Assembly (NCBI GenBank): GCA_022840825.1
Contig: JALHDB010000001.1
Location: forward strand, 211,763-275,762
Source: Negativicutes bacterium
GTDB taxonomy: Bacteria > Bacillota > Negativicutes > JALHDB01
Length of the DNA: 64,000 nucleotides
Direction of reading: 5' to 3'
Shown: in pieces, positions 1 to 20,586 of the stretch
Numbering within the stretch: the stretch's first letter is position 1
Layout: each line of letters starts with the position of its first letter
The notes under the pieces: generated by a model
Database searches by the model: none
Told to the model about the DNA's origin: nothing
Seen by the model: only the letters and a program-made list of their open reading frames with translations
Made by a program: the position numbers and the translations under genes

Positions 1-255
1 TTTATTATACATTTAACATGAAATAATGACAATTATATAAAGATGGTGACGGCGTAGAATGCCAAAAGAACGAAGTCCTAATTTTGCTATCAGCGCTAAA
101 TTTGTAAAACCAGCTGCCTAAAGAAGTCATGAACCTGGATTTTATCGCTGTAAAATATTATAATATATATAAACATGAGTTTGAAAAAATCGATAAAGTA
201 ATGATCATTTGTTTAAGGTCGGTACTCATGTATATCGGTAAGACTAGGTAAGTAG

Positions 256-471
256 GTGATTTTGATGTTGGAAAAGCTGTTTAAACTAACCGATAAAAAT
301 GCCAAGGTGGTACTTAATTCAGGTGAGAGTTTCATCTGTGTGCCGTTGCAGTATCTGGAGGAAGAATACGAATCTTTTCTGGTAAGGGTGTCTGAAACCT
401 CAGGCATGTATAGCCAAGGTTCCCTAGTTGAGCTTGAAGAGTCGCAAATTAAATCTGTTGTTCAAGTATAA
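256..471 (+). CDS. hypothetical small protein (71 aa)
   Basis: ORF with an AGGTGA-like RBS upstream, followed by a hairpin and T-run. No recognisable family. Confidence 0.3.
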   Translation: MILMLEKLFKLTDKNAKVVLNSGESFICVPLQYLEEEYESFLVRVSETSGMYSQGSLVELEESQIKSVVQV

Positions 472-526
472 AGGCGCTTAAGTTATTACATAAAGCGCTT
501 TTATATTTTTAATTTTCGTCAAATTA

Positions 527-550
527 AACACTCTCAAGAGTGTTATTTTT
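527..550 (+). terminator. rho-independent terminator-like hairpin
   Basis: aacactc-tcaa-gagtgtt stem followed by attttt, just downstream of the 256..471 ORF. Confidence 0.4.
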
Positions 551-777
551 ATGCCCAAAACGCAGTGACCGGCCTTAAAAACTTGCTGCGGAAAAAGGCG
601 ACGGCTTAAAAATGGAGGTAAGGAAATGGACGGCGATGCCACCAATGAACGCTCCGCCAGGTAATCAGCAACAACGGGGAGGTCTAAATAAAAATAGTGA
701 ATACCGGCCGTAAATCCGCCAATGAGCACGGCTACATATCCAGTTTACACGAATAGGATAATATGGAGGTGAAATAA

Positions 778-1341
778 ATGATAAAAGGTATCGATGTATC
801 TGTGCATAACGGAATGATAGATTGGCAAGCCGTGGCTGCTGCCGGTATTGAATTTGCCATAATTCGTTGCTCCTATGGTCTCCAATCTAAAGATGCAATG
901 TTTGCTCAAAACATCGCCGGGGCAAAAGCGGCCGGTCTGCAAGTCGGCGCATATCATTATTCCTATGCCCTGAGTGTAGAAGATACAATCCAGGAAGCAG
1001 CCAACTGCCGGGAGGCGATTGAGACAGCGGGGATAGCACTTGATCTTCCTGTGTTCTTCGACATGGAAGACGCGGACGGATACAAATCACGAAATGGTTT
1101 TTCCTTTGATCCTGCAGAAATTACGGCTATGTGTCAGGCTTTTATTGAAAATGTCGGCATTGACTGTGGTATTTATGCTTCTTACTATTGGCTGACTGAT
1201 TATATAGACTGGCGCAGCATAGGTTGTGCAGTTTGGAATGCGCAGTGGGGACCGAATGACGATATCCAAGGATATATCTGGCAGTATACTGATTCCCTAG
1301 AAATCGGCGGGCAATTGTTTGACGGAAATATTAAATATTAG
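778..1341 (+). CDS. GH25 family muramidase (lysozyme, phage endolysin-like), catalytic domain only
   Basis: N-terminal GIDVSxHNGxIDW and IEFAIIRxSYG motifs typical of glycoside hydrolase family 25. Strong GGAGGTGA RBS. Confidence 0.85.
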   Translation: MIKGIDVSVHNGMIDWQAVAAAGIEFAIIRCSYGLQSKDAMFAQNIAGAKAAGLQVGAYHYSYALSVEDTIQEAANCREAIETAGIALDLPVFFDMEDADGYKSRNGFSFDPAEITAMCQAFIENVGIDCGIYASYYWLTDYIDWRSIGCAVWNAQWGPNDDIQGYIWQYTDSLEIGGQLFDGNIKY

Positions 1342-1346
1342 GAGGA

Positions 1347-1535
1347 ATGAACATGGATTGGTTGATTAAAAAGTTAAAGGCAGTAAGCAATTCCCTGGCT
1401 GGAAAAGCCGAGTATTTAGAGAAACTGGATGCCGAAACCAAGGCCAAGATTAATGCCGATACCAAGCGGGCCTTTTGGCTTGGAGTTGGTAGTCTGGCCA
1501 TCATTGAGGGAGTTTTATACCTGGTGGTGAGGTAG
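1347..1535 (+). CDS. small tail-anchored membrane protein (62 aa), possible holin-like lysis accessory
   Basis: Starts 5 nt after the endolysin stop with a GGAGGAA RBS. Amphipathic N-terminus and a single C-terminal TM (FWLGVGSLAIIEGVLYLVV). Confidence 0.45.
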   Translation: MNMDWLIKKLKAVSNSLAGKAEYLEKLDAETKAKINADTKRAFWLGVGSLAIIEGVLYLVVR

Positions 1536-1545
1536 GTGTTATTGA

Positions 1546-1974
1546 TTGGTTCAAAAAATATTGTCATTATTATTGTGTTGTTTTTTATTGCTATTGCCGG
1601 TTGGTACGTGTTCGGCCCAGACCTATCAAGTGACCGATCCGGAATTGACGAGGCTCGAACAAATATTCAATCAGCTAGCGAGCAACAATCAAAGGCTGCT
1701 GAACGAATTAAGTCAGTCGAAACAGGACTTGACGATAGCGCGGCAAAAGCTGGCCGAATATCAACAGGACTTGCAGGCACTGCAGCGGCAATTGCTAACG
1801 TTGAAACAAGAATCGATTCAGGCCAAAACGGAGCTCAGTCAAGCGCAGAGCTCATTGCAGAAGGCCAATCGATCCTTGCAAGAATACGAAAAAGAAATCA
1901 ATTCTAAAATGAAGAAAATGAAACTGCAACAAGCGATATGTGTGCTTGCTGCAGTCATACTGGCTGTTAGATAG
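1546..1974 (+). CDS. secreted/lipoprotein-like coiled-coil protein with C-terminal TM (142 aa), unimolecular-spanin-like architecture
   Basis: TTG start preceded by a GGTGAGGT RBS. N-terminal signal/lipobox-like LLPVGTCSAQ and Q/L-rich heptad repeats. C-terminal TM (ICVLAAVILAV). The stop is immediately followed by a terminator. An alternative frame, 1536..1907, is also open. Confidence 0.5.
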   Translation: MVQKILSLLLCCFLLLLPVGTCSAQTYQVTDPELTRLEQIFNQLASNNQRLLNELSQSKQDLTIARQKLAEYQQDLQALQRQLLTLKQESIQAKTELSQAQSSLQKANRSLQEYEKEINSKMKKMKLQQAICVLAAVILAVR

Positions 1975-1985
1975 CTCCTTAGGTT

Positions 1986-2022
1986 GCCGCTCTGTCCTTC
2001 GGGATGGGGCGGCTTTTTTGTT
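1986..2022 (+). terminator. rho-independent terminator
   Basis: GC-rich hairpin gccgc...ttcg...gcggc followed by a tttttt run. Confidence 0.7.
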
Positions 2023-2051
2023 TATTTCACTTAGACAATAGTCTCATTAAG

Positions 2052-2669
2052 TTACAATTTTCGGTTAGGCTGAAGTGGAAGATGAATTGATATTGCTTCA
2101 CCAGCTTCAAACAATGCTTTGTCAACTGCAGTTAATCCAACATCTTTGCTTCTTATTGATACCCATGAAACGACTCTGTCATCAAGAAAAACCGACTCTT
2201 GATCATTTGCTGCCTTGGCTGTAATGATATTGCTGTAAATAGTTTGCTTAGTATAGATATCAAATATTTTAACTGTCATGGAAGCTGAGAATTTTTTCCC
2301 ATATCTAAATAGAGCGACCTGTTCTTTTCTATTAAAGGGATGTAGTTCTAAATATACGGCATAATCAATTTCATCATTCGCAAAAACGTTTATTATTTCT
2401 TTATCTGCTGATTTCGAAGTGGCAAGAGTTGCCATTATTTTATAATATTTTTGATGATTAATTACTTTATAAAGTCCGTCTACTTTTCTATGAAGAAAAT
2501 TTGTAATATGTTCATTTAGAACATCATCGAAAGCGCTTTTGGAGTTATTAATAAAAACTAAAGTGACAGTCGCTTTTTCACGTTCTTGTGCATTTGTGAC
2601 ACTTAATGCGCAAATAACATTAAAACTGATTATTAGAGCTATTATAATCCTTAAAACCATAGTAATCAC
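2052..2669 (-). CDS. secreted protein of unknown function, paralog A (205 aa)
   Basis: N-terminal signal peptide. Shares conserved blocks with the adjacent gene (FINNSKSAFDD, DYAVYLELHPFNRKE). Local GC ~30%. Confidence 0.7.
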   Translation of the reverse strand: MITMVLRIIIALIISFNVICALSVTNAQEREKATVTLVFINNSKSAFDDVLNEHITNFLHRKVDGLYKVINHQKYYKIMATLATSKSADKEIINVFANDEIDYAVYLELHPFNRKEQVALFRYGKKFSASMTVKIFDIYTKQTIYSNIITAKAANDQESVFLDDRVVSWVSIRSKDVGLTAVDKALFEAGEAISIHLPLQPNRKL

Positions 2670-2672
2670 TCA

Positions 2673-3284
2673 CTAATCTTTTTTTTCAGGCTTTTTTAAA
2701 GGTAAACGAACTTTTATAACTGAATTCATTTTTTCAAGTGCTTTATTCAATGCTTTTAAAGATACAGATTTATTGCCTATGCCACCGAGCATAGTTGAAT
2801 CAGAAGCAAACTCAGTAAACTTACCGTTATACAAATATTTATTTTTTGAAAGATCAATTATTTTTAATGGTATAATAGCAGTCATATCAATACCATACGT
2901 AAAGAAGGTTTGTCTCTCTTTCCTAATAAAAGGTTGAAGTTCACAAAAAAGAACATAATCAACATTTTCACCTTTAAATACATCAATAATATCGGATCTC
3001 TCAGCTGTTGCAATATCAACTATACCTGATTTATTTAATAACTCTATATAGCGGGTTCCAGGTATAATATTATAATTCTTTTTCAATAAACTATCAAAAT
3101 TATCCATTATTGTTTTGTTAATTTCATCATCATAGGTAGTTTTCGCATTATTAATATATAATAATGCTACATTTGGCTGGTTCTCTTTACTTGAAGAAAA
3201 TTCAAAAGCATGTGCATTCGGGATGAAAGTTACAGAAAATAATATAGCTGTAACTATGAAAAGCATTAATATTTTTTTCATCAT
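2673..3284 (-). CDS. secreted protein of unknown function, paralog B (203 aa)
   Basis: Signal peptide with AHA cleavage site. Paralogous blocks YINNAKTTYDD and DYVLFCELQPFIRKE. Strong GGGGGG RBS. AT-rich. Confidence 0.7.
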   Translation of the reverse strand: MMKKILMLFIVTAILFSVTFIPNAHAFEFSSSKENQPNVALLYINNAKTTYDDEINKTIMDNFDSLLKKNYNIIPGTRYIELLNKSGIVDIATAERSDIIDVFKGENVDYVLFCELQPFIRKERQTFFTYGIDMTAIIPLKIIDLSKNKYLYNGKFTEFASDSTMLGGIGNKSVSLKALNKALEKMNSVIKVRLPLKKPEKKD

Positions 3285-3462
3285 AGTCCCCCCTAATAAT
3301 TTTAGTGAAAAAAAAGTAAATTACATACTAAATTTTTCCTTTTTAAATAATACCATAAATATCAAATAATTACAAAAATAAAATATTATCCCCCGCTTTG
3401 GCAGGGCTTATTTTTTTACACCAATTACCAACGGGTTTAATACTTGCTTTTCTCCTATAGGC

Positions 3463-3665
3463 ATGTGTGGATAAGTTTTTATTCGGGTAATCGTAGAGCA
3501 TGATGAAGATGGCAATATCCGTCCACTGTCGTTGAAATGGACAGATGGCCGAATTTTGCAATTGATCGGATTTTAGACGTACGCCAGGCTGTAGCTTTAA
3601 GGCTGAACACACGTGCTTTGAGTTTATAGCAAAATGCAAATTTGTGGTATAATGAAACATAGAGT
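3463..3665 (+). pseudogene. degraded paralog of the small dinB-downstream gene (21858..22088); premature stop and frameshift
   Basis: Translation VFIRVIVEHDEDGNIRPLSLKWTDGR aligns with KIFVKVTAEHNTDGQIRPLIITWTDGR of the intact gene. Shared nucleotide strings ATCCGTCCACTG and AATTTTGCAATTGATCG. TAA at codon 4 and a 1-nt deletion. Confidence 0.6.
3624..3653 (+). promoter_or_regulatory. candidate sigma-A promoter with extended -10 (TGGTATAAT)
   Basis: tgg-tataat at 3645..3653, about 35 nt upstream of the RBS/start of 3691..4089. Confidence 0.4.
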
Positions 3666-3690
3666 TGGAACTGAAAGAAGGAGATAGAGT

Positions 3691-4089
3691 ATGAAATTTA
3701 AGCCTTTAGTTGTTTGTTTACTTGTAGTTGCATCTCTATTTGTAGGAATAGCTTCTGCATTTGCAGCAAATTGGATATATGTAGGGCATACGAAAAATGG
3801 ATATTCGTGGTATGTGGATGGCAACACATCTAAGAGAATCGGTAATACTGTTGTTTTTTGGCAGTTGATTGTTTGGGATACGCCTAGTAAAAGTGGCGTG
3901 AAGAAAGGTATGATTAAAATAAAAGCTACATTGTCTAACCCTCGTACAAGGCAGACTCTAGAAACATATGCATATGATTCCAATAATAAAGAGATTACTC
4001 ATAATCTTCATCCTGGGGAAATTAATCGGGTTTCTCCAGGCTCAATAAATGATAACTGTATTGATATTGCTCTTAAATATGCAAAATAA
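3691..4089 (+). CDS. small secreted protein of unknown function (132 aa)
   Basis: GGAG RBS, signal peptide with ASAFA cleavage site, terminator downstream. Confidence 0.6.
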   Translation: MKFKPLVVCLLVVASLFVGIASAFAANWIYVGHTKNGYSWYVDGNTSKRIGNTVVFWQLIVWDTPSKSGVKKGMIKIKATLSNPRTRQTLETYAYDSNNKEITHNLHPGEINRVSPGSINDNCIDIALKYAK

Positions 4090-4127
4090 AATAGAAATAT
4101 TTGTAATGGCGGCGGGATATGATGTAT

Positions 4128-4160
4128 AAAACACGGTATAGACTTGTGCCGTGTTTTTGT
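4128..4160 (+). terminator. rho-independent terminator
   Basis: acacgg...ccgtgt hairpin followed by ttttt. Confidence 0.6.
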
Positions 4161-4200
4161 ACATATGAGTTTAGTCATATTCTTCGAATAATACAGATAA

Positions 4201-4420
4201 TCATATGAAGGCAATGAAATAACTTTGATTGATGTTTTGGGGACAGCTCCGGACGAAGTCGCTGAAAAGGTTGAAAGTCAATGTGAACAAGAAAGGCTAA
4301 GCCTGCATATTAATTGCTTAAGCAGACGGGAAAAATGGGTATTGGAGATGAGATTTGGTATTCCGGATGGTCACAAGTACGGATGATTAGAGAGGTGAAA
4401 TAAAGCTGTAGCAATATTGA
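4201..4420 (+). pseudogene. 3' fragment of a SigK/SigE-like sporulation sigma-70 factor gene (region 3 to 4.1; region 4.2 decayed)
   Basis: An in-frame TAA at 4198 is followed by EGNEITLIDVLGT...LSRREKWVLEMRFGI, a sigma region 3/4.1 signature. Premature stop at 4384. A +2 frame retains a weak SRIEKRA-like remnant. Confidence 0.7.
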
Positions 4421-4484
4421 ATATTTTCTTGTCTTGCGACATACCACCGGTAGAGCTTGCTGACAAAATAAGGGGAGTAGCATA

Positions 4485-5372
4485 ATGGACAAAATTACGG
4501 TAATGGCTAACCGGGCAAGAGCGGCTTTTAATGCGAAGCAGGCCAAGTTGCCTCGCGAGATTGTTCCTGTAGGTTCTTTTTCTCAGCGTATTTTAACGAC
4601 CTTTGCTGGCAGCACCTCTATAATAATATATCGCCCACATACAGCAAAGGAAGAATTTCTACCCGTTTTTGTCAATATTCACGGTGGTGGGTTCGTTATG
4701 GGTAGCGCATGTGATGATGACGTATGGTGCAGAAAAATTGCAAATATCGTGGGTTGTGTTGTTATCAATATCGATTACCACCTTGCTCCAGAGCAGAAGT
4801 TTCCAGTAGCACTGGAAGAGTGCTACTATGTTATCAAATGGATATATACTAATGCATTAGAGTTAAATATTGATCCTAATCGCATAGCCGTTGGCGGGCA
4901 TAGTGCCGGTGGTAATCTGGCGGCGTCATTATGCCTGCTGTCAAGGGATAGGGGGGAATTTCCGATAGTGTATCAGGTACTGAACTATCCTCCACTAGAC
5001 TTGTCTATCGACCCATTCAATCGTCCATCGACAGATAGCTTACTGACACCAAAGGCACAAGACTTTTTCAATTCTTGTTATTTTAACACTGCAGCGGATG
5101 CTCTTAACCCCCTAGTTTCTCCTTTACTAGCTGCAGACTTGTCCGAATTACCGGACGCCCTAATCATTACGGCAGAATATGACCCCTTAAGACAGGATGG
5201 AAAAGTATATGCCGAACGTTTAGCAGAAGCCGGTGTTGAGGTTACGTATAGAATGTTCCCGGGATGTATGCATGCGTTCACTCATTTTAGTTCACATAAG
5301 ATGTCTAAAGAGGCCTGGGCGTTGATATATTCTCAACTAAAGAGAGCTTTTGGGGTAGGGAAAAACAATTGA
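4485..5372 (+). CDS. alpha/beta hydrolase fold-3 esterase/lipase (HSL family)
   Basis: HGGGF oxyanion motif, GHSAGG nucleophile elbow, C-terminal His region. Confidence 0.85.
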   Translation: MDKITVMANRARAAFNAKQAKLPREIVPVGSFSQRILTTFAGSTSIIIYRPHTAKEEFLPVFVNIHGGGFVMGSACDDDVWCRKIANIVGCVVINIDYHLAPEQKFPVALEECYYVIKWIYTNALELNIDPNRIAVGGHSAGGNLAASLCLLSRDRGEFPIVYQVLNYPPLDLSIDPFNRPSTDSLLTPKAQDFFNSCYFNTAADALNPLVSPLLAADLSELPDALIITAEYDPLRQDGKVYAERLAEAGVEVTYRMFPGCMHAFTHFSSHKMSKEAWALIYSQLKRAFGVGKNN

Positions 5373-5441
5373 AATTAATACTGCGTCTGATTTTATTAAT
5401 ATCAGAATAGTGGACATACTAGCTGTAAAGGAGGGTTATAA

Positions 5442-5702
5442 TTGACTAGTATGGTTTGGATGTTAATCATAGGGGCAGTTGCAGGATGGTTGGCAGGAAA
5501 TTTAGTAAGAGGACATGGATTTGGATTATGGATAGATATGATTGTTGGGGTAATTGGTGCATTTATCGGTAATTTTTTATTTTCAATGGTAGGAATAGGA
5601 ACATTTGGGGTAATTGGAAGTTTCATATCAAGTTTGGTCGGAGCGGTAATATTTGTTTATATAATTAGGATGTTTAGTAATAAATCGACCGGAAATAAAT
5701 GA
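5442..5702 (+). CDS. GlsB/YeaQ/YmgE family transglycosylase-associated membrane protein
   Basis: Gly-rich three-TM small protein (AGWLAG...GIIGAFIG) typical of this family. Confidence 0.85.
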   Translation: MTSMVWMLIIGAVAGWLAGNLVRGHGFGLWIDMIVGVIGAFIGNFLFSMVGIGTFGVIGSFISSLVGAVIFVYIIRMFSNKSTGNK

Positions 5703-5802
5703 AATAAAAAGGTGTAATTGGTATTAACGCCAGAGGATTTGAACAAATCGCCAGCGATACCCTCGGTACAAAACAGAATACTATAAACATAGTATATATA
5801 AT

Positions 5803-5848
5803 AATCCTTCCTGTCATGGAAATGACATGAAGGATTATTGGCATTTTA
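5803..5848 (+). terminator. terminator-like hairpin
   Basis: 15-nt arms aatccttcctgtcat / atgacatgaaggatt (one mismatch) followed by a T-rich tract. Confidence 0.5.
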
Positions 5849-6270
5849 TGGGGAATTTTTTTTAAGAAGTATTTCGTTTGACATTATAAACAGATATTGA
5901 ATAAGTAATATATTTGGGGGAGAGCAGTCCCAAATTACCGGATAAAGGCGTAATAAAATGGGTAATATTAGCACTAGGTGTTAGGGATTATATCAGAATG
6001 TGCCTGCTGAAGAAAAGTTGCCAGCAGTGGCTATCCTATACTATTGACATTACGGAATCTTGAATAAGAGGTACGAGTGGGCGATGATCTGAATCTTCAC
6101 TAAATTATGCAGGGCTACGTTTATGATTTTACGATAGGTAAAATGGTAATTGGTTTGATGATACGGCACAGGCGTTATATAATCAGGATTAGAGAAGGAT
6201 AGCTGGGGCAATCCAGGAGTAGATTGACTCGGTATAGGTATGGACTTGCTTAACAAAGGAGAGCTGTTTT

Positions 6271-7737
6271 TTGACGTTCAAAATTTCCGTGGTATTAACT
6301 GTAATGGTTGTTTTAGTAGGAGCAATTTTTCCTACGGTTTTAGCAAAAATGGCCCAAAATATGTTTGAAGGAATTATCGCTAGTTTCGGTTGGTTTTACT
6401 TATGGGTTACCTTAGGTTTCTTAGTATTTTCGCTTTATTTGGCCTTTGGTCCGTATGGAAAAATTCGTCTGGGACATGACGAAGACAGACCCGAATATAC
6501 CAATCTTACTTGGTTTGCTATGTTATTTAGCGCAGGTATGGGTATAGGCCTGGTATTCTGGGGTGTGGCTGAACCGATGTTTCATTATATAAGTCCGCCG
6601 ATGGGACTAGAAGGTAGAAGCGCGGAAGCTGCCAGGGTGGCGTTACGCTATGCTTTTTTTCACTGGGGACTTCATCCTTGGGGGATTTATAGTATAATGG
6701 CTCTGGCTCTTGCGTACTTTAACTTCCGAAAAAACAGCAAAAATCTTATCAGTGCTACGTTTACCCCGCTTATTGGCCGCGCAACAGAAGGTATTCTGGG
6801 TAAATCAATTGATGTGTTTACAATCATTGCTACTGTTTTCGGGGTGGCAACTTCCTTAGGATTGGGTGCTTTGCAGGTTAATAGCGGTTTGAGCAGTATG
6901 TTTGGGTTACCTGGTAGTGTAATGATGCAGATTATCATTATTGCCTGTGTAACTGTGTTATACATTCTTTCGGCTTCGACCGGCTTAGATAAAGGAATTA
7001 AGATATTAAGTAATGTAAATATAGTTTTGGCTATCACATTGATGCTATTCGTATTAGTAGTAGGACCAACCTCATTTATATTGGATGTTTTTACACTCAC
7101 TTTTGGCGAATATGTTCAAAACCTGCTTTATATGAGTCTGCGCATGAGTCCGTTTACGCAAGGCAGTTGGATGAGTCAGTGGACATTGTTTTATTGGGCT
7201 TGGTGGATTGCATGGGCACCATTTGTCGGTTCCTTTATAGCACGTATCTCACGGGGACGCACAATTCGGGGATTTATTTTAGGTGTTCTGATTGCACCCA
7301 GTATTTTTGGCTTTTTCTGGTTCTCCATATTTGGCGGAACAGCTTTAAATCTGGAAATATTTCGTGGCTACTCTATCGGTGAAGCTGTGCAGTCAGATAT
7401 GGCATCAGCGTTGTTTGCCACTTTGGAATATTTGCCTCTCGGAAAAGCTGTAGCGTTATTATCGTTGTTATTGATTATAAGTTTTTTTATTACTTCCGCC
7501 GATTCTGCTACTTTTGTGTTAGGTATGTTTTCCACTGACGGAAATCCAAACCCCAGTGCGGGCATAAAATTGACGTGGGGGATATTGCAATCTTCAATTG
7601 CTACGGTACTTCTTGTAAGTGGCGGGCTCATGGGATTGCAACAGGCTTCAATCATTGCATCTTTGCCTTTTTCGGTCATAATGATCTTTATGTGCATTTC
7701 ACTTTGGAAGTCGTTAAGGAATGAAAAATTCAAATAA
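6271..7737 (+). CDS. BCCT family betaine/carnitine/choline transporter
   Basis: 488 aa, 12-TM. BCCT signature WxxFAMLFSAGMGIGLVFWGVAEP. Confidence 0.9.
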   Translation: MTFKISVVLTVMVVLVGAIFPTVLAKMAQNMFEGIIASFGWFYLWVTLGFLVFSLYLAFGPYGKIRLGHDEDRPEYTNLTWFAMLFSAGMGIGLVFWGVAEPMFHYISPPMGLEGRSAEAARVALRYAFFHWGLHPWGIYSIMALALAYFNFRKNSKNLISATFTPLIGRATEGILGKSIDVFTIIATVFGVATSLGLGALQVNSGLSSMFGLPGSVMMQIIIIACVTVLYILSASTGLDKGIKILSNVNIVLAITLMLFVLVVGPTSFILDVFTLTFGEYVQNLLYMSLRMSPFTQGSWMSQWTLFYWAWWIAWAPFVGSFIARISRGRTIRGFILGVLIAPSIFGFFWFSIFGGTALNLEIFRGYSIGEAVQSDMASALFATLEYLPLGKAVALLSLLLIISFFITSADSATFVLGMFSTDGNPNPSAGIKLTWGILQSSIATVLLVSGGLMGLQQASIIASLPFSVIMIFMCISLWKSLRNEKFK

Positions 7738-7812
7738 ATTTAATATTGGGCGGTTAGTTTTATGCTGTGCAAAAAGCAGCCTCGCCTTGCAATATGGCTG
7801 AGACTTCGGTAT

Positions 7813-9456
7813 TTATAGGTGATCCTCCGCAACTGTTTTGTGAGCTATGCTGGCAGCATGATCGCCTATGCGTTCAAGATTGCTGGCTATATCGACAAAA
7901 AGGATTCCCGCATCACTGGTGCAGACTCTTTCATTCATTCGCTTAATGTGAGTATTACGCAAATCACGTTCCATTTGGTCAATAATCTTTTCTTTTTCAA
8001 AAACCGTTGAGGCCAGTTCTACATTATTAGTAAAGAAAGCTTGAAGCGCTTTTTTAAATGTTTCGTTAGTTAATTCGAACATTTCGTTCAATTCAATGAT
8101 CGCCTCATCGGAGAACGATACATTGTTTATTGTCCGATCCTCAAGTAACTCAACAATGTTTTCCATATGATCTCCTACACGCTCAATATCACGAATAGTA
8201 TCCATAAGTTGATTGTGTTCTTTTGATTCATAAGGGCTAAGCGATTTGGTGGATATAGTCACTAAATATTCAGTAATTACTTTATCCAGTTGATTAATTG
8301 CTTGTTCGTACTGAAGAGCAAGTGAAGCATGCTTCTGTTCTTTGTTATTTAAAAACAGAAACGCTTCATTAACAGCATCTGCAGCAAATTCGCCCATGCG
8401 TTTTACCTCATTTTTTGCTTGTCCTAAAGCAATGTTTGGGGATTGTTCGATTACGGTAGTACTTAAATGTTGTAATTGTATATTAAGCAGTCTATCTTCT
8501 CCGGGAATTATTTTGGTTACAAGCCAAGCAATTGCAGCAATAAACGGAAATTGAATAATCGTATTGGTTACATTAAAAATGCCGTGAGCAAACGCAATCG
8601 TCATCTCAGGATTTAAGTTCAAGGATGACTGCAAATATGCAATAAAATTGGTAAATGGCCCTAAGACAAGTAAAAAAATAACCGTTCCGAGTAGATTGAA
8701 CAATACGTGAACAACTGCTACTCTTTTTGCCGAAATCGAAGTGCCGATTGCGGCTAAAATAGCAGTAATTGTCGTTCCAATATTATCTCCAAACAATACA
8801 GGTAGTGCTGCACGCAGGTTAAGAGCACCCTGCGCAAATAACTCTTGCAGTATTCCAATGGTTGCGCTAGAACTCTGAACAATAATTGTGAATATAGTAC
8901 CTACAAGCACACTAAGTATTGCATTATCACTCATACTAACTGTAATTTGTTGAAATTCATCTAAAGAACGAAGGGGTTTCATTCCTGAACTCATTAGTTC
9001 TAAGCCGAAGAATAATGTGCCAAAGCCAAATATAATTTGGCCGAGGGCATTTATTTTTTTGCTCTTGAAGAAAAATAGCAAGATGGAGCCGGTCGCAATG
9101 ATTGGTAAAGCATATTCACCGATATCAATCCCGATAATGAAGGATGTAACAGTTGTTCCGATGTTTGCTCCCATAATGACGCCAATAGCTTGATGAAACG
9201 TCATGAATCCCGCACTCACTAATGCTACAGTCAGTGCAGTTGTGCCAGAACTTGATTGAATTAAGGCCGTAATAAAAATTCCTGCTAATACTCCCATAAA
9301 GGGATTTGTTGTAAAGCGGTCTAAGATGGCTCTTAATCTTCCACCGGCCGCAGCCTTAAGACCTTCCCCCATATATTTAATGCCAAATAAAAAGATACCG
9401 AGGCCGCCAACGAACTCAAATATCATGGTCTGTAGATCAAAGTTCAACACGAGCAA
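7813..9456 (-). CDS. Na/Pi cotransporter family protein with C-terminal PhoU-like domains
   Basis: N-terminal Na/Pi cotransporter repeats (QSSSGTTALTV, GANIGTT). C-terminal PhoU-like helical domain. Confidence 0.9.
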   Translation of the reverse strand: MLVLNFDLQTMIFEFVGGLGIFLFGIKYMGEGLKAAAGGRLRAILDRFTTNPFMGVLAGIFITALIQSSSGTTALTVALVSAGFMTFHQAIGVIMGANIGTTVTSFIIGIDIGEYALPIIATGSILLFFFKSKKINALGQIIFGFGTLFFGLELMSSGMKPLRSLDEFQQITVSMSDNAILSVLVGTIFTIIVQSSSATIGILQELFAQGALNLRAALPVLFGDNIGTTITAILAAIGTSISAKRVAVVHVLFNLLGTVIFLLVLGPFTNFIAYLQSSLNLNPEMTIAFAHGIFNVTNTIIQFPFIAAIAWLVTKIIPGEDRLLNIQLQHLSTTVIEQSPNIALGQAKNEVKRMGEFAADAVNEAFLFLNNKEQKHASLALQYEQAINQLDKVITEYLVTISTKSLSPYESKEHNQLMDTIRDIERVGDHMENIVELLEDRTINNVSFSDEAIIELNEMFELTNETFKKALQAFFTNNVELASTVFEKEKIIDQMERDLRNTHIKRMNERVCTSDAGILFVDIASNLERIGDHAASIAHKTVAEDHL

Positions 9457-9549
9457 CTCCTTTAGATTTATCCAGATGATGATAGTAGGGTAATAATCTT
9501 TCCTGCATCGGAAAACATGCCGGTAGATGATGCTGGTTATGTTAAGCGG

Positions 9550-9810
9550 CTAGTCTAGATCATCCATACCATAGGTGTTATTTCGATTATGGTTTCGGAT
9601 GAAATTTTCTTTGCTAGTTGCTTCTTGGGTAGCTGGTGATTTATTTACTTCAATACTGGGGATAGTACCCGGAACAGGTTGGGATTTATCTATACCTTTC
9701 ATCCACGGCGCGAGTAATATATAGCTCGTGACAGCCCCTGCAATCAAAACAATAGCTAGAATTACACCAAGCCACTTATGAAGTTTAGAAATTTGTTGAT
9801 AATATTTCAC
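9550..9810 (-). CDS. small single-TM membrane protein (86 aa)
   Basis: GTG start with a GGAGG RBS 6 nt upstream. One TM helix. Confidence 0.45.
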   Translation of the reverse strand: MKYYQQISKLHKWLGVILAIVLIAGAVTSYILLAPWMKGIDKSQPVPGTIPSIEVNKSPATQEATSKENFIRNHNRNNTYGMDDLD

Positions 9811-10053
9811 TTTATGCCTCCAAATTTAAGATGGTTTAAGCTAATATTCGCGGTTAGTCTAGTTTATCCAATTTTGCAGATTAGTTTACCAAAAATGAAA
9901 TTGAACTTTTACGATATTGCAGAACTTGTTGGTATTGCCTTTGTTATAATAGGATGAGCTACCTGGGGATGAGGAGAAAAGTGGTTGGAATTTATGCTAA
10001 GTTTAAGGGCAGTCCATATAGATTGATCGCATACAAATAATAGAGGTGATTCA

Positions 10054-10245
10054 ATGGAACAGAAATATGATGCTACTTACCATTTTGGTAAGGTCGTTGT
10101 TCACGTTGTAGCTCCTCCGCCAATGACCGAAGAAAAGAAACAAAAAATTCTTGCAGAGTTTTATAAACACGCATGGACTGCTTGGAACGATCTGCCTGTC
10201 GAACAGAGACTAAAAATTAACGCACAGTATGCTAAGGACGAATAG
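10054..10245 (+). CDS. hypothetical small protein (63 aa)
   Basis: AGAGGTGA RBS. Followed by a strong terminator. Confidence 0.4.
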   Translation: MEQKYDATYHFGKVVVHVVAPPPMTEEKKQKILAEFYKHAWTAWNDLPVEQRLKINAQYAKDE

Positions 10246-10252
10246 ATTACCT

Positions 10253-10306
10253 AAAATACAAAAGAGAATTACCCAGCTGCGGTGGGAAATTCTCTTTTGT
10301 ATTTTA
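10253..10306. terminator. bidirectional rho-independent terminator
   Basis: 18-nt perfect arms aaaatacaaaagagaatt / aattctcttttgtatttt with flanking A/T runs. Confidence 0.65.
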
Positions 10307-10612
10307 CGGATTTAAGAGAGTGAAAAGTAAAATTATAATTGATGAAAAATTGGATAACATTGGTTGATAAGTCAATTATGATCAGCGAAATACAAGAATA
10401 AGTAAAAAGGTGAAAACAACGCCATATATACCATTTATAATTATGAAAACATATAATATACATCCTTAGGAGTATAAAATTGCTACAAGCGATTAGATGC
10501 ATAAGTTAATACACCGTTAGTTCATTCTCTAGACGGAAGTGATGTAGTGATTAACCAATTATAATATATATGATAGTATTTTTATTTCGTAAATATTGTA
10601 ACTGGAGGATAG

Positions 10613-11257
10613 GTGATGAAAATATTAGTTATTGGCGACAGCTATGGACTCCCTCGCTGGCACCAATATATTGACAGGGTCGAACTTTACTATAAAGACA
10701 CGTATCCGGAATGCTTGCGAAGTATACTACTGGACCGCTATCATGAGGATATTTTACTAGTGAATCATTGCCGGCATGTCAATGTGTCCCTTGCCTTGTT
10801 ACGGGGAGAAGCTAATGATGTATATTTTTTAGAACCTGATTTTGTCGTTGTTCAGCTAGGTCTAGTTGATCTTTGGCCGGTTTATGGTCGTAATATAGTC
10901 CCGCCTTTTGCGGATTTGGCAGGTAAAGACCCGTGGGTAGATTTGGAACAATACCGTGAAAATCTAGAACGGTTTATAAAGTTTTGTTCAAGCAGAGATG
11001 AGCTTAAAGGGATTGTACTTGTTAATATACCTAAGGTAAGTGAGGAGCAGTATCAGCGATATCCTGCAAGTCATACTAGAACAATAAGCTACAATAAAAT
11101 TTTGACAACGTTGGCCCGATTCCCAGTTGCCTTGGTTGATGCCTACTCCTTAGTGGAAGAATTAGGGCAGGCTGCAATTGGTAGTGATGGTATACATCCT
11201 ACCGCCTTGATGTCCCACAAACTGGCGGATCGCATTGCCAATACTATAAAAATTTAA
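10613..11257 (+). CDS. SGNH/GDSL-type hydrolase
   Basis: Block I GDSYG near the N-terminus, block III GEANDV, block V DGIHP. Confidence 0.65.
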   Translation: MMKILVIGDSYGLPRWHQYIDRVELYYKDTYPECLRSILLDRYHEDILLVNHCRHVNVSLALLRGEANDVYFLEPDFVVVQLGLVDLWPVYGRNIVPPFADLAGKDPWVDLEQYRENLERFIKFCSSRDELKGIVLVNIPKVSEEQYQRYPASHTRTISYNKILTTLARFPVALVDAYSLVEELGQAAIGSDGIHPTALMSHKLADRIANTIKI

Positions 11258-11281
11258 AAATAATAATTTGGGGGTAAAAAC

Positions 11282-11836
11282 ATGAAAGGTCAGATTGTAA
11301 AAAGTGAATTGATCGAACAGATTATTAAGTTGGAAGAGGAAATGTTTTTAGCGGTGAGATCTATGGAATCTGCACCTTGCCAGCAAATGATCGGAACTTT
11401 CAGGGCTATGCGGAATATGAGCCATTCAGTATTAAGTGAGGAAACACTGAAATCATATTTTAATGATCTCGTGCAAGCCAAAGAGGTAGGACGCAATCTT
11501 ATGACGGAAAAGTATGCGCGAATGGATAACTTGATACCTCCGTTGAGTACCAACCCATTGATTGTTAAAATTGTCGATATTGAGATGGAGTGGATGCAAC
11601 AGCTTCAGACAAAATACCCGCATGCTATTAAGGAAAAAGGCGGATTCGATAATTATATGAGAAGTGAATTAGAAACTTATTCTGATAATACTCTTCAATT
11701 TTATTATCGAGATATAATAACAGCAAAAGCAGATGAAGTTAATTTTGTCGAGCAGAGATACAAGAACCTGTACTTGGGTTTAGGATTTAGATCTCTTGAT
11801 GAGGTTGAAGAAACGGCACGTAAAAATAGCAAATAA
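11282..11836 (+). CDS. hypothetical protein (184 aa)
   Basis: Good RBS, 24 nt after the upstream hydrolase gene. No recognisable family. Confidence 0.5.
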   Translation: MKGQIVKSELIEQIIKLEEEMFLAVRSMESAPCQQMIGTFRAMRNMSHSVLSEETLKSYFNDLVQAKEVGRNLMTEKYARMDNLIPPLSTNPLIVKIVDIEMEWMQQLQTKYPHAIKEKGGFDNYMRSELETYSDNTLQFYYRDIITAKADEVNFVEQRYKNLYLGLGFRSLDEVEETARKNSK

Positions 11837-11870
11837 GTACTTTGGGAATTAACGGATGAGTAAGTCAGAC

Positions 11871-12083
11871 CTATAGAACAGTATGATCAAAGCTTTTAAG
11901 TCTTGTTTGCCGTTTTAACGCGGTGGGAAAGACTTCTATAAGCATAATTATTGAGACTAAGATAACTGTGATTTCAAATGCGATGGCAAAGGCTATCACG
12001 GTATAGCGGGCCAAGGAAGAATTTATTAGAATTCCGAATAGCGTCGATAGAGAAATTAAGATAATGTAAATCCATTTAGTCAT
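11871..12083 (-). CDS. small two-TM membrane protein (70 aa)
   Basis: Hydrophobic ORF with GGAG-like RBS. Weak support. Confidence 0.35.
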   Translation of the reverse strand: MTKWIYIILISLSTLFGILINSSLARYTVIAFAIAFEITVILVSIIMLIEVFPTALKRQTRLKSFDHTVL

Positions 12084-12302
12084 ATAACCATCTCCTGATG
12101 ATTTATCTGGCTTTTAAATGAAAGATCTAGCAAAGCCACCTTATGCCAAGGTGGTTTATTTATTATGTTTAAAAACTATAGCAATTTTTCAAGCTATTGA
12201 CTCACCAAAAGATTGCTTAGCTCATAGTCTAAAGTAGCTACCTTTTGATGTTAGCCTTGTTGAACATTTAAATCTAGGGGTGATTACGAAACAGCCAAAA
12301 GG

Positions 12303-13586
12303 GTGATGTTGATGAAAGAAAGCGAACTCTCACATAATTTATCATTGCAGCCTTTACCTGAAGCTGCGGAATTGAAGCAAAAAGCAAAGGGTCTTTTCAA
12401 GTACATCGGCCCGGCTTTCATTGTAAGTGTGGCATATATGGATCCTGGTAATTTCGGTACGAATATTGCTGGAGGTTCGAAATTTGCCTACAATCTAATT
12501 TGGGTTATTCTATGGAGTAATTTAATGGCAATTTTCATTCAAATTCTTTCGGCAAAATTGGGAATTGCTACCGGCGTTCATTTGCCTGATCATTGTGGAA
12601 AGGTTTTTTCACGGCCCGTTAACTGGTGCTTGTGGTCAATAGCTACCGTGGCGGCGATGGCTACAGACCTTGCAGAATTTCTTGGGGGGGTATTGGGTTT
12701 CTACCTTCTATTCGGAATACCACTGGTGTGGGCTGCTTTACTCACAGGAGTGATTACCTTCGGGATTTGCCATATGCAAAAGTATGGACAGCAGATTGTT
12801 GAACGCATAATCACAGTCATGGTAGCGATCATTAGTATTGCCTATGTGTGGGAAATGTTTGTTGCCAAGCCGGAATGGAATAAAGTTGCTTATCATACTA
12901 TAGTTCCTATACTTACTTCTGATAGTGTATTAGTGGCGGTGGGCATGTTGGGAGCAACCGTAATGCCCCATGTCATCTACCTGCATTCTCATCTGGTTCA
13001 GTCAAGACGTACTGAATGTATTGAAGACTGTAAACACCACTTAAAGATGGCTAAAATTGATGTATTCGTGGCTATGAACATGGCATTTATCGTAAACGCA
13101 GCCATGGTAATTGTAGCTGCTGCAGTATTTAACGGTAATGGTCTTGATGTCGATAGTATCGAGGCCGCGTATATGACGTTGCAGCCATTAATGGGTAATA
13201 TGGCTGCCGGAGCCTTTGGCTTGGCGTTGTTGGCTTCCGGGTTATCATCATCTACTGTTGGTACGATGGCTGGAGAAGTAATTTTGGGGGGATTTGTCGG
13301 CTTTGATATACCTGCAAGTATAAGACGCTTAATCACAATGATTCCAGGCTTAGCAATTTTAATTGCAGGCGTGAACCCAATGGAGGCTTTAGTTTACAGC
13401 CAAGTGTCATTAAGCTTCGCTTTACCTGCAGCGATTATTCCATTAATGATTGTTACTAACAAAGCAAATGTTATGGGTAAGTTCAAAAACGGTCTACTCA
13501 CGAATTGTATCGGTTGGATTATAGTTAGTATGATTATCGCTTTGAATACTGTTTTGTTGTACCTTACTTTTACTGGGCAAGGTTAA
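12303..13586 (+). CDS. mntH: NRAMP family divalent metal (Mn2+/Fe2+) transporter
   Basis: MDPGNFGTNIAGG and MPHVIYLHS Nramp signatures. 11-TM. Confidence 0.9.
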   Translation: MMLMKESELSHNLSLQPLPEAAELKQKAKGLFKYIGPAFIVSVAYMDPGNFGTNIAGGSKFAYNLIWVILWSNLMAIFIQILSAKLGIATGVHLPDHCGKVFSRPVNWCLWSIATVAAMATDLAEFLGGVLGFYLLFGIPLVWAALLTGVITFGICHMQKYGQQIVERIITVMVAIISIAYVWEMFVAKPEWNKVAYHTIVPILTSDSVLVAVGMLGATVMPHVIYLHSHLVQSRRTECIEDCKHHLKMAKIDVFVAMNMAFIVNAAMVIVAAAVFNGNGLDVDSIEAAYMTLQPLMGNMAAGAFGLALLASGLSSSTVGTMAGEVILGGFVGFDIPASIRRLITMIPGLAILIAGVNPMEALVYSQVSLSFALPAAIIPLMIVTNKANVMGKFKNGLLTNCIGWIIVSMIIALNTVLLYLTFTGQG

Positions 13587-13600
13587 GTTTTGGACTTCTG

Positions 13601-13642
13601 CAAGGTTTGTAGAATTGTTATCTACAAACCTTGTGAATTTTC
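13601..13642 (+). terminator. rho-independent terminator (mntH)
   Basis: 13-nt arms caaggtttgtaga / tctacaaaccttg followed by a T-rich tract. Confidence 0.6.
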
Positions 13643-13660
13643 TGGGAAGAAAAATTAGAA

Positions 13661-13700
13661 GAGACCTTTATTTCCAGTAGTAGGTGGAAATAAAGGTCTC
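13661..13700 (-). terminator. terminator-like hairpin for the minus-strand gene 13925..14194
   Basis: 15-nt perfect arms gagacctttatttcc / ggaaataaaggtctc with an A-run on the plus side (U-run on the minus transcript). Confidence 0.5.
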
Positions 13701-13924
13701 GCTATAGCAGGCGTACTGCCAGTAGAACCGGGCTTTCGCCAGTGTGTCGATTCTACTCACGGATTATTGTCCGTTAGCTACTCCCCTTTACGGGATAACT
13801 GTTTGATGTATTTTATGAAACGAATCACTTTAATGACACATATTTCTGCAAAAATTTGATGGATTGCTTTTTCTTTGCCACTTCTTCGCCAGACTATTTG
13901 CAGTTTTTAAAATTATGATTTAAA

Positions 13925-14194
13925 CTAAAAAGTGCGGTTTCTGATCCATTCCCAAGCTTTGTCGGTCAGCCAGCCATTATAATCTTTCGTTACTCGGATA
14001 ACCAATAATGTATCGTCGGTATCAATATGAGGCTTAAGTTTGTTGAATATTGCAGCAGCATCTTCCTGAGTATCGATTAACCATGACGAAGTTAATTGGT
14101 GCCACCAAGTCTCATATGACTTTATGGCGCCATATAATTCTTCGTAGTTTTTATCTTTTTTGTTTAAGTCATAACTAATCATATAAACAGCCAA
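13925..14194 (-). CDS. hypothetical Trp-rich small protein (89 aa)
   Basis: GGAAAGGA RBS. Predicted beta-alpha-beta-beta-alpha-beta pattern. Confidence 0.5.
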   Translation of the reverse strand: MAVYMISYDLNKKDKNYEELYGAIKSYETWWHQLTSSWLIDTQEDAAAIFNKLKPHIDTDDTLLVIRVTKDYNGWLTDKAWEWIRNRTF

Positions 14195-14420
14195 AATATC
14201 ACGTCCTTTCTATGACGGATTTCGACCTGACAAAGATATTTCCTGTAATCGATTAGCAAAAATGGTTGAAATAATTATCGGAAACGAGCAGTACTAACAA
14301 GGAAAAAATGTAGCCTGCTCATTTAGGCTGTACTCGATCATACATAAAGTCGGGTAGATAAACAGAACAATAGAAAAGGAAAGAACGGGGCAGTTTCAAA
14401 ATTGGGGTGGTAGAATAATA

Positions 14421-15326
14421 ATGAATGAAGAAGTTAGAAACAAAAGAGCAAAAGAAGTAACTTGGGCCGGTTTTTGGCTAAACATAGTTTTAACGGTACT
14501 CAAGATTTTCGCCGGCATTCAGGGGAAAAGTGCGGCAATGCTTGCGGATGGAATACATTCATTGTCGGATTTTATTACGGATATCGTTATTTTGATTGGA
14601 TTTCAGTTTACGGCAAAACCAGCAGATGAAAGCCATAACTACGGTCATGGTAAATTTGAGACATTTGCAACAGTAATTATCGGATTAGCGTTAATATTTG
14701 CCGGCTACGGTATTTTTAAGTCAGGTGCGCAGAATATATATGCGGTTTTTGTGCAAGGCGTTACATTGGAAAAGCCTGGTATGATTTCGCTTGTAGCAGC
14801 GGTCATATCAATTGTTGGAAAGGAATGGCTATTTAGATACACGAGAAACGTTGGTATAGAAATAAACTCACCGGCTGTCATCGCTAATGGCTGGCATCAT
14901 CGCTCAGATGTTTTTTCTTCTTTTGGGACCTTAATTGGTATTGGTGGTGCAATTTTTCTAGGATCTAATTGGACAATTCTCGACCCGATCGCATCTATTG
15001 TGGTTAGCTTTTTCATTTTTAAGGTGGCTTTAGAAATATTGGCTCCAGCCTTTAGTGAATTAATGGAGACATCTTTAGGAGCGGATGACATTGATTTTAT
15101 TGAATCGACGATAGCGCAGCATCCTGAGGTAGTAAGTTCGCATAAACTTCGTACCCGCCGAATTGGTTCTAAAGCTGCTATCGAAGTGCATATCGAAGTT
15201 GATCCTAATTTGACCGTAAAGATTGCCCATATGATAGCGACCGAAATTGAAATGACGCTGCATGAGCATTTTGGTGAAGCAGTGTTTATAACTACTCACA
15301 TTGAACCTGCTCCCGACAGAGTATGA
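14421..15326 (+). CDS. cation diffusion facilitator (CDF) family metal efflux transporter
   Basis: CDF N-terminal TM motifs (LADGIHSLSDF, HGHGKFE). C-terminal cytoplasmic domain. Confidence 0.9.
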   Translation: MNEEVRNKRAKEVTWAGFWLNIVLTVLKIFAGIQGKSAAMLADGIHSLSDFITDIVILIGFQFTAKPADESHNYGHGKFETFATVIIGLALIFAGYGIFKSGAQNIYAVFVQGVTLEKPGMISLVAAVISIVGKEWLFRYTRNVGIEINSPAVIANGWHHRSDVFSSFGTLIGIGGAIFLGSNWTILDPIASIVVSFFIFKVALEILAPAFSELMETSLGADDIDFIESTIAQHPEVVSSHKLRTRRIGSKAAIEVHIEVDPNLTVKIAHMIATEIEMTLHEHFGEAVFITTHIEPAPDRV

Positions 15327-15554
15327 CGAATAAGACAGACGTCTCTTTTGATGACAAGTTGATGACAAGGGGACGTTCCTTTTTTGTCATAGAATAGTTA
15401 AAATGACTAAGTAGAAGCAACAGGTTATTGCAGGATTTTCAGAGCTTTATGGGAATATATGGTTTACAAGTATTATGTCGGCTGCGGCTGAGATGGGATG
15501 TTGTGAAGTATTGCGGTATGGTGGTCATTTGTTACTAAGAAAGGAGAATATATT

Positions 15555-16235
15555 ATGATTTCAAGTAATGAGATCAAGGCTAGGGTGATCCAGTTAGGGG
15601 CAGATATTTGCGGATTTGCTGGCGTGGATCGTTTTGTTGATGCACCCCAAGGATTTCATCCTAAGGATATTATGAAGGAATGTAAAACAGTTATTGTATT
15701 TGCTGCCCGTTTTCCTGCTAATACACTTTCAGCGTCTACCCAATCACCATATACCTTTGTTCGTCACAAAATGGTTGATAAACTGGATACCATTACTTTT
15801 CAGCTTACTTCGGAACTGGAATCGGCAGGTGTCGGCGCAATTCCTATACCGTCTTCCGAACCTTATGATTACTGGGACAGTGAGCGACGGCACGGTCAGG
15901 GAATTTTATCATTGAAGCATGCCGCAGTACGAGCCGGCTTAGGAAAAATGGGAAAGAATACGCTTTTGATTAACGAACACTTTGGTAATATGCTTTGGCT
16001 GGGAGCTGTACTGACAGATTTAGAACTGGAATCGGATCATATGGCCGATTATGAGGCTTGTATTCCCGGTTGTCAGCTTTGTATTGATTCTTGTCCAGGG
16101 CAAGCCCTCGATGGTACCACGATTATTCAGCAGGCCTGTCGTAGTCATTCTACTAAATTTACCGAAGGTGGCGGAGTAGTACTGTTATGCAACCTGTGCC
16201 GCAAAATATGTCCGCGCCGACAAGGTATCAGATAA
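15555..16235 (+). CDS. 4Fe-4S dicluster domain protein (epoxyqueuosine-reductase-like N-terminal fold)
   Basis: Two CxxCxxCxxxCP motifs (CIPGCQLCIDSCP, CNLCRKICP). Confidence 0.6.
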   Translation: MISSNEIKARVIQLGADICGFAGVDRFVDAPQGFHPKDIMKECKTVIVFAARFPANTLSASTQSPYTFVRHKMVDKLDTITFQLTSELESAGVGAIPIPSSEPYDYWDSERRHGQGILSLKHAAVRAGLGKMGKNTLLINEHFGNMLWLGAVLTDLELESDHMADYEACIPGCQLCIDSCPGQALDGTTIIQQACRSHSTKFTEGGGVVLLCNLCRKICPRRQGIR

Positions 16236-17745: not shown

Positions 17746-17761
17746 TTTTACTCTCCTGTCG

Positions 17762-17806
17762 ATTGGTATCCAATTTTTTTTATTAATTGGGTAATTGGAT
17801 ATTTAC
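17762..17806. promoter_or_regulatory. candidate MocR operator: ATTGG repeats (inverted ATTGG-N3-CCAAT plus two direct AATTGG copies)
   Basis: Sequence gATTGGtatCCAATtttttttattAATTGGgtAATTGGat in the divergent regulator/azlC intergenic region. Confidence 0.4.
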
Positions 17807-17859
17807 GTTTATTTTCCTTCTCGATACTATAATATATATGTTAAAGGAGGTCCGGTTGC

Positions 17860-18901: not shown

Positions 18902-18978
18902 TTAAAATTTATGGTAGATGGTACTGACTAAAGCTATTGTCTAACGTGGGAGTATGATATTTCTACTGATTAAAGAGA

Positions 18979-20581: not shown

Positions 20582-20586
20582 AATAT

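Follow-up and report, generated by a model that had tools for sequence, protein, structure and literature searches.

The question raised by this locus is how a piece of the sporulation sigma factor gene sigK came to lie beside prophage-like DNA, and whether either of its ends has decayed. The window analysed is the whole stretch of 64,000 nt, and all coordinates given below are window positions unless another sequence is named. The best explanation, with a probability of about 0.8, is that the piece represents copy B of a 283-bp duplication of the host sigK 3' end, located at the right junction of a defunct PhiS63/skin-type prophage, and that the loss of region 4.2 from it is probably an assembly error. 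The features of the locus are listed in Table 1.

Table 1. Features at and around the sigK fragment (window positions)
Position	Strand	Feature	Basis
1-4206		Right-hand 4.2 kb of a 5.7-kb prophage remnant	Pfam, PHROGs, blast of the 76-aa gene
778-1341		GH25 endolysin
1347-1535		62-aa ORF
1536-1907		Rz-like spanin candidate
2052-2669 and 2673-3284	minus	Two paralogous low-GC ORFs, 205 and 203 aa
3468-3606		Remnant of the 76-aa gene	blast
3691-4089		Adhesin_E-like gene
4122-4164	plus	Hairpin with U-run, terminator of the Adhesin_E-like gene	MFE -21.6 kcal/mol, z = -6.5, 0 of 200 shuffles as stable
4193-4200	plus	Element-side (P-arm) motif ACAGATAA of the right attachment junction	Same motif at ~20 independent split-sigK loci of Sporomusaceae
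4207-4377	plus	Copy B of the sigK 3' end, as assembled; codons E139 to K195, repeat positions 0-170	Translation, NCBIfam, L048 alignment
4213-4220	plus	Core octamer AATGAAAT, codons N-E-I, crossover region inside sigK	Split loci diverge from intact sigK just ahead of the octamer
4377/4378		Probable mis-join, 98 bp absent between the two bases (repeat positions 171-268, all of region 4.2)	L001 alignment, k=100 simulation
4378-4390	plus	Final 13 nt of the copy B frame (T ACG GAT GAT TAG), including the copy-B-specific ACG codon	L001 alignment, copy comparison
4485-5372	plus	Abhydrolase_3 esterase, first gene after copy B, opens the 18-kb cargo block	Pfam E = 9e-68
20594-22088	plus	Y-family DNA polymerase (IMS) and 76-aa partner gene	Pfam IMS E = 2e-42; abuts the yqeG-like gene, no sigK piece between
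22211-24363	plus	yqeG-like phosphatase, CN hydrolase, aroE; direct sigK followers in most relatives	tblastn synteny, ~17 related loci

Identity of the fragment and its 5' edge

Translated from position 4198, the frame opens with an in-frame TAA and reads SYEGNEITLIDVLGTAPDEVAEKVESQCEQERLSLHINCLSRREKWVLEMRFGIPDGHKYG up to the next stop codon. The 57 residues encoded by the copy B segment correspond to SigK region 3 to 4.1. In the NCBIfam profile search, the fragment was aligned with model positions 138-193 of the 227 positions of SigK TIGR02846 (E = 1.4e-14, 54 bits); the SigE profile was the runner-up (6e-12), and the remaining sigma factors were far behind. A Sporomusaceae SigK query matched the same segment by tblastn with 82% identity (E = 8e-26), which was its sole match in the 64-kb window. 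Compared with the full-length sigK of the species itself (L048 10418-10589, described below), the fragment showed one mismatch in 172 bases (99.4% DNA identity). No match was obtained with the 61-residue fragment in Pfam. Judged by these scores, the likeness to SigK is real and well past chance. An earlier interpretation made from the letters of the window (hereafter the sequence-only reading) had described a sporulation-sigma frame matching region 3 to 4.1 directly after an in-frame TAA, and had made itself dependent on a significant profile alignment to region 3/4. Both the frame and the alignment were confirmed, with SigK ranked above SigE. The window copy is a gene fragment and not a complete sigK gene; it has neither a start codon nor region 2, and its score is below the curated cut-off of TIGR02846 (298.65 bits).

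The DNA alignment at the upstream break revealed the motif ACAGATAA 12-15 nt ahead of AATGARAT in about 20 independent Sporomusaceae loci, the distance in the window being 12 nt. Copy B begins exactly where about 20 related genomes hold an element inserted in sigK. With both the motif and the core common to many related elements intact, the 5' edge of the fragment is not decayed and represents a canonical right junction of a sigK-integrating prophage. The sequence-only reading had considered a relic of a skin-like element with a decayed boundary; the link with skin-type insertion into sigK is retained from it, but the 5' boundary carries both motif and core. Its statement that the fragment starts near the skin split of Bacillus subtilis is only approximately right, as skin is placed elsewhere in sigK (PMC3442830). 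A minority class of loci (L009, L015 from Propionispora sp. 2/2-37, and L044) has GTCTAAA instead of ACAGATAA about 12 nt ahead of the NEITL core, which suggests a second recombinase specificity at this site.

Full-length sigK in sister assemblies and the 3' break

The closest database match to the fragment (protein P0005) led to the assembly GCA_022838805.1 (L001), which, together with GCA_022837255.1 (L048), was used as a sister assembly. Over 14.4 kb, L001 and the window agree at every base (100% identity), save indels in the sigK segment and one 12-N scaffold gap, and L048 12176-16552 is identical to window positions 1-4377 (100%). The gene order in L048 is response regulator, histidine kinase, full-length sigK (copy A), 5.7 kb of further DNA, and copy B; the esterase is next in the sister-assembly order. 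L001 opens at its contig end with a second sigK 3' end (positions 1-183), 1.5 kb left of window position 1. In the sister assemblies, copy A is located about 5.9 kb upstream of the fragment, just left of the window start. As copy A is outside the window, we infer its presence in the genome of the window from the 100% identity with L048 and L001 over the common sequence.

The sigK 5' half of L048 runs unbroken through the core to the stop codon and has the copy-A-specific base at repeat position 71, where copy B has T. Copies A and B form a 283-bp direct repeat that begins at GAAGGC (codon 139) and includes a single base beyond the stop codon; they agree at 279 positions and differ at 4. The gene is not split at this locus; with a duplicated 3' end flanking the element, sigK can be made without any excision. 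Another sigK elsewhere in the genome had been anticipated by the sequence-only reading and corresponds to the full-length copy of L048 and L001, whereas an interruption of that gene by an element, for which a check had been proposed, was not observed in L048, where sigK is continuous from start to stop. A first protein search with the fragment, which yielded five short ORFs only, had hinted at a truly split gene, and this idea was dropped in view of the same continuous sigK. Using a chimeric full-length query, two full-length SigK proteins with a C-terminal half identical to the fragment were found, namely P0052 (in L048) and P0102. No fully intact 232-aa SigK of the species was present in the protein collection, the sole two full-length entries being gapped by 12 and 23 residues in region 4.2.

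The 98 bp absent from the window relative to L001 (L001 6126-6223) amount to 32 codons and two bases of the next codon. The final T ACG GAT GAT TAG, with the ACG at repeat positions 270-272, is all of the reading frame that remains 3' of the break and is out of frame in the window, and translation of the two other frames after 4386 gave no remnant of region 4.2. A shifted, shortened trace of the region 4.2 helix-turn-helix had been reported from the sequence alone; what is found instead is a clean block missing in comparison with L001. The break in the frame, reported likewise, is present in the window as given, but is probably not biological. L001 has region 4.2 intact in both copies and a 53-bp tandem repeat that is extra relative to the window. 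P0052 lacks 12 residues of region 4.2 (a 36-bp gap in copy A of L048) and P0102 lacks 23 (a 69-bp gap), and both gaps begin after the same residue (GHK) as that of the window.

The positions of these gaps follow the spacing of the bases at which copies A and B differ. In the window, the gap has its left end at repeat position 170, which corresponds to SNP1+99, and the missing block starts at 171, which corresponds to diff3-99. The L048 contig ends at the same base at which the deletion starts, and the L001 contig and its 53-bp "duplication" both begin at SNP2-99. In a k=100 de Bruijn simulation of the reconstructed locus, copy-specific unitigs ended at 170 and started at 99 or 171, and these boundaries coincide with the points where the gaps start, the contigs end, and the 53-bp repeat begins. 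The coincidence is at base level for two gap starts and two contig ends, and at residue level for the third gap. The gap sizes of 36, 69, and 98 bp are those of a right-hand contig (start 171) appended at a wrong negative distance; simple k-mer geometry does not predict where the 36-bp and 69-bp gaps end on their right or where the 53-bp repeat ends on its left, and noisy negative gap estimates at scaffolding have to be assumed in addition. Outside the repeat, zero base differences were observed between the assemblies over 14-16 kb. Within the BCCT transporter gene, L001 8177-8188 is occupied by 12 N, compared with 28 bp at window positions 6331-6358. Since 12 N stand there for 28 bp, distance-based joins do occur in these assemblies.

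In a k=100 de Bruijn graph, both copies would thus be merged, and contigs specific to one copy would then have been joined with a wrong negative gap. Because the ends of the 98-bp gap sit exactly 99 bases from copy-discriminating bases, as the k=100 graph predicts, the absence of region 4.2 from the window most likely reflects an assembly artefact and not decay. The join error, indicated by both the k=100 geometry and the simulation, explains the break better than the decay of the 3' end assumed in the sequence-only reading. In the true copy B, region 4.2 and the stop codon are very probably intact, as they are in L001, and copy A of the species was concluded to be intact. The gaps in P0052 and P0102 probably represent the same artefact, and real lesions would look alike.

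A real loss of region 4.2 from copy B, and in some strains also from copy A, in a population losing sigma-K function or at a deletion hot spot with a fixed left end, is unlikely. It would account directly for the gap as given in the window, for the gaps starting at one residue in two proteins of the same species, and for the lack of an intact SigK of the species among the database proteins; moreover, invented junction k-mers are not normal for de Bruijn assemblers. These points are outweighed by the two gap starts and two contig ends that coincide at base level with the k=100 unitig boundaries set by copy-distinguishing SNPs, by the third gap beginning at the same residue, by the identity of the remaining 14-16 kb, by the absence of microhomology at the junctions, and by L001, which keeps region 4.2 in both copies and is itself scaffolded across N runs that misstate the true distance (12 N vs 28 bp). 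No biological cause of the common deletion start was found among microhomology, pseudo-attachment sites, and template switching between copies, and the 28-mer ending in CACAAG had no match in the metagenome scan. A population version of this explanation, in which both sigK copies repeatedly lose region 4.2 via 36-, 69-, and 98-bp deletions in one Sporomusaceae species, is very unlikely. Two of the deletions share their start nucleotide at base level, the third shares the residue, and two of the three are in frame; if true, they would imply a site-specific deletion process or strong selection disabling the DNA-binding helix of sigma-K with the rest of the protein kept. Under the preferred explanation, an assembly error, the locus is a worked example of how a 283-bp near-identical repeat gives false "pseudogenes" in metagenome-assembled genomes, and scoring sporulation capacity from such genomes would wrongly mark the organism as sigK-defective.

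Surroundings of the fragment and sigK insertions in Sporomusaceae

The fragment adjoins a prophage-like remnant, as the sequence-only reading had noted; the Pfam and PHROGs searches placed an endolysin, a spanin candidate, and accessory genes alongside it. The left end of the remnant, beyond the window, includes an ImmA-like protease gene, truncated next to copy A, and small ORFs. No recombinase was detected among the 10 ORFs of the 5.7-kb element using Pfam and PHROGs, and the left junction is absent from the element. Because it has neither recombinase nor left junction, developmentally regulated excision in the mother cell would not be expected here. The terminator hairpin is predicted from its folding energy to shield copy B from upstream transcription. 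The two paralogous minus-strand ORFs are about 29% identical to each other and, with 31-33% GC, form the lowest-GC part of the window; they had no family match, and a distant homologue of one of them lies inside the L026 element. No Rfam family was detected in positions 1-8000 and no tRNA in the window. Among 80 related prophages (viral contigs with endolysin relatives), the junction motif was found in none and a sigK piece at one distant locus only. The parent phage and its recombinase were not recovered from viral contigs by the endolysin scan or by tblastn with the PhiS63 integrase, the latter covering related viral contigs only.

Downstream of the fragment, the 18-kb cargo (4387-22100) comprises the esterase, the BCCT transporter, a Na/Pi cotransporter, a GDSL lipase, DUF4125, Nramp, a cation efflux protein, a 505-aa minus-strand ORF, and membrane ORFs. 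Judged by synteny, the yqeG-like gene and its followers, 18 kb downstream of the fragment, mark the ancestral sigK neighbourhood. The spacing between sigK and yqeG among relatives varies from 0 to more than 10 kb, which makes this a variable region. A foreign location of the fragment, suggested by the lack of synteny of the genes just downstream with those of relatives, was rejected, as the yqeG-like gene, CN hydrolase, aroE, and pilB were found 18 kb further on. Homologues of the 76-aa gene are located 1-2 kb upstream of the sigK 3' halves in L009, L015, L026, and L030, with the polymerase also in L015, and in relatives the polymerase and 76-aa pair is typically found as cargo at the right end of sigK-integrating elements. 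Because this right-end pair precedes the yqeG-like gene 18 kb downstream, the locus would have undergone more than one insertion event, and the window seems to hold the remains of two sigK-integrated elements. A decayed copy of the 76-aa gene also occurs inside the prophage remnant.

To survey sigK, one genome per species was scanned using the fragment aligned with its nearest relatives as the query, and the reading frame was extended upstream at each locus. The scan yielded 42 loci, the named ones belonging to Sporomusaceae and allies (Pelosinus, Sporomusa, Propionispora, Dendrosporobacter, Anaerospora, and Lucifera), all with at most 82% identity. The host is a member of Sporomusaceae (Negativicutes). 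An intact sigK (about 235 residues) was found at 16 loci. At more than 20 others, including the complete genomes of S. aerivorans and S. acidovorans, the sigK sequence is lost immediately before NEITLIDVL, and 4 loci, including S. ovata DSM 2662, are split between CIE and NEILMH. With more than 20 loci split at the first point and 4 at the second, insertion into sigK is common in Sporomusaceae. The complete genomes of Sporomusa aerivorans, S. acidovorans, and S. ovata contain one sigK 3' match each, with no 5' half ahead of it. Split sigK genes in Negativicutes are on record, e.g., in Pelosinus fermentans CP010978.1 (Galperin et al., bioRxiv 10.1101/2022.02.25.481979), and the Pelosinus loci of the survey are also split at the NEITL point.

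The boundary between CIE and NEILMH, seen in L010, L028 (Sporomusa ovata DSM 2662), L031, and L041, constitutes a second insertion point about 100 bp upstream of the tblastn match, where the octamer AATGAAAT occurs again. L028, L031, and L041 have their own conserved element-side sequence, GAGAATAGCA, directly ahead of the octamer. Since the octamer is combined with a flank of its own at this site, sigK offers two landing sites with one core to different element families. In L035-L040, L042 (Pelosinus), L015, and L034, the last 10-15 SigK residues after the SRIEK codons are swapped for unrelated, similarly basic tails (HRMLMTKKLIT, QGIQRTKKIG, and others), and the canonical SigK end KAIGKLGKSLSAEDS is kept in Pelosinus L022 and L043. 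The swapped tails may represent a third junction at the extreme 3' end, the element supplying a substitute tail. Two or three partial sigK 3' copies per assembly were observed in the metagenome-assembled genomes CAXYVG01 (L010, L044, and L046) and JARBUM01 (L035 and L043); in CAXYVG01, two of them share a contig and are separated by 11 kb that include the hut operon. Such extra sigK tails may arise repeatedly as a by-product in Sporomusaceae, or the CAXYVG01 and JARBUM01 bins may mix strains. In another metagenome-assembled genome (L045 10001-10237), a sigK 3' half of the split type has an in-frame 12-residue gap in region 4.1, between REI and MRFGL, which may be real or a further assembly effect. 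The survey adds to what is known of skin-like elements in Negativicutes: in Sporomusaceae, sigK very often serves as a landing site, with two insertion points that have the octamer in common and at least three junction-sequence families.

Although a split gene is the usual state in many of these relatives, including the three complete Sporomusa genomes, and the junction sequence here is canonical, it is highly unlikely that the fragment is the sole 3' half of a truly split sigK, joined to a distant 5' half by excision during sporulation as in the skin system of B. subtilis; the sigK of L048, identified as copy A by its base at position 71, is unbroken to its stop just 5.7 kb from copy B, and the intervening DNA has no recombinase. 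The idea of a phage-carried sigma factor gene, also raised by the sequence-only reading, draws on the adjoining phage lysis genes and on the few phage records that do encode sigma factors, but is extremely unlikely, as the top match in a set of 50,697 phage records reached 48% identity, compared with 99.4% at the DNA level for the host sigK, the first bases of the fragment coincide exactly with the attachment core, and the homology with copy A stops one base past the sigK stop.

Origin of the duplication and comparison with known systems

In the preferred explanation, that of a host sigK 3' end duplicated at a prophage junction, a serine-integrase prophage would once have sat in sigK at the core octamer. 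The right end of the prophage, with the attached sigK 3' half, would then have been joined downstream of an intact sigK, the likeliest route being homologous (Campbell-type) integration of an aberrantly excised phage devoid of its integrase. The aberrant excision circle would have consisted of the phage right end, the junction, and the sigK 3' end, having lost the integrase end and gained host DNA from the right, like lambda bio phages, and one homologous crossover between such a circle and an intact sigK would yield the observed structure. The truncated ImmA gene adjoining copy A fits an illegitimate joint there. Alternatively, a chromosome segment may have been imported from a lysogen. Internal deletions would later have shrunk the prophage to 5.7 kb, and copy B could still recombine with copy A, deleting the remnant. 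With no promoter or start codon, and behind a terminator, copy B would be a functionless scar today. The locus is a further example of an ordinary, known kind of prophage scar, and, as such a scar beside an intact gene, it is of little import in itself.

The closest known system is the Clostridium perfringens phage PhiS63, the attB core of which, GTAATGAAAT at nt 427 of sigK, was mapped experimentally, the B. subtilis skin being in a different region of the gene (PMC3442830). The attachment core is the same here as in PhiS63 and the clostridial elements skinCd and skinCt, with GTAATGAAAT in PhiS63 corresponding to GGCAATGAAAT at codons 140-143 here. In the PhiS63 genome, GTAATGAAAT occurs once, between the end of the lysin and accessory genes and a 502-aa large serine recombinase. 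As in PhiS63, an endolysin and accessory genes stand at the junction with the sigK 3' half in the same orientation; the recombinase, found at the far end in PhiS63, is gone here together with the whole left and middle of the phage. The element-side arm motif also differs (ACAGATAA here vs ACATACAAC in PhiS63), the host here is a diderm Negativicute, and a second 3' end leaves sigK uninterrupted.

The B. subtilis skin (spoIVCB, spoIVCA, and spoIIIC) is likewise prophage-derived and associated with sigK, and its 3' gene piece is not expressible alone. Its insertion point is a different one, which we take to be about 12 codons further downstream than that of PhiS63 and the window. Among the features of a skin-type element, the conserved attachment core is present here, and the separation of the sigK 5' and 3' parts and a recombinase are absent. 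Skin has retained SpoIVCA together with its directionality factor, Skr, and its excision takes place in the mother cell (PMC6957869), whereas this element has no excision machinery and its host needs no excision. The split sigK of Pelosinus fermentans represents the same phenomenon in the same bacterial family, and it differs from the present locus in that only a remnant and a duplicated 3' end are found here.

Gene-preserving integration is exemplified by e14 and phage 21 in the icd gene of Escherichia coli, where a displaced 3' pseudo-copy is left; there, the phage attachment site itself includes the replacement tail, and the integrase drives the process. The present locus resembles these systems in that the target gene is complete on one side of the element, and the other side has a partial copy of its 3' end, beginning at the crossover (283-bp repeat, 279/283). 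It is unlike them in that the elements related to that of the window disrupt the gene, each of the complete Sporomusa genomes having a single 3' copy, and in that PhiS63 has no sigK-like arm; moreover, no integrase is left here. By this comparison, a built-in replacement tail appears unlikely as the origin of the duplication, and, because the related elements are gene-disrupting and PhiS63 has no such arm, homologous recombination or segment import would be likelier than a tail of the e14 type.
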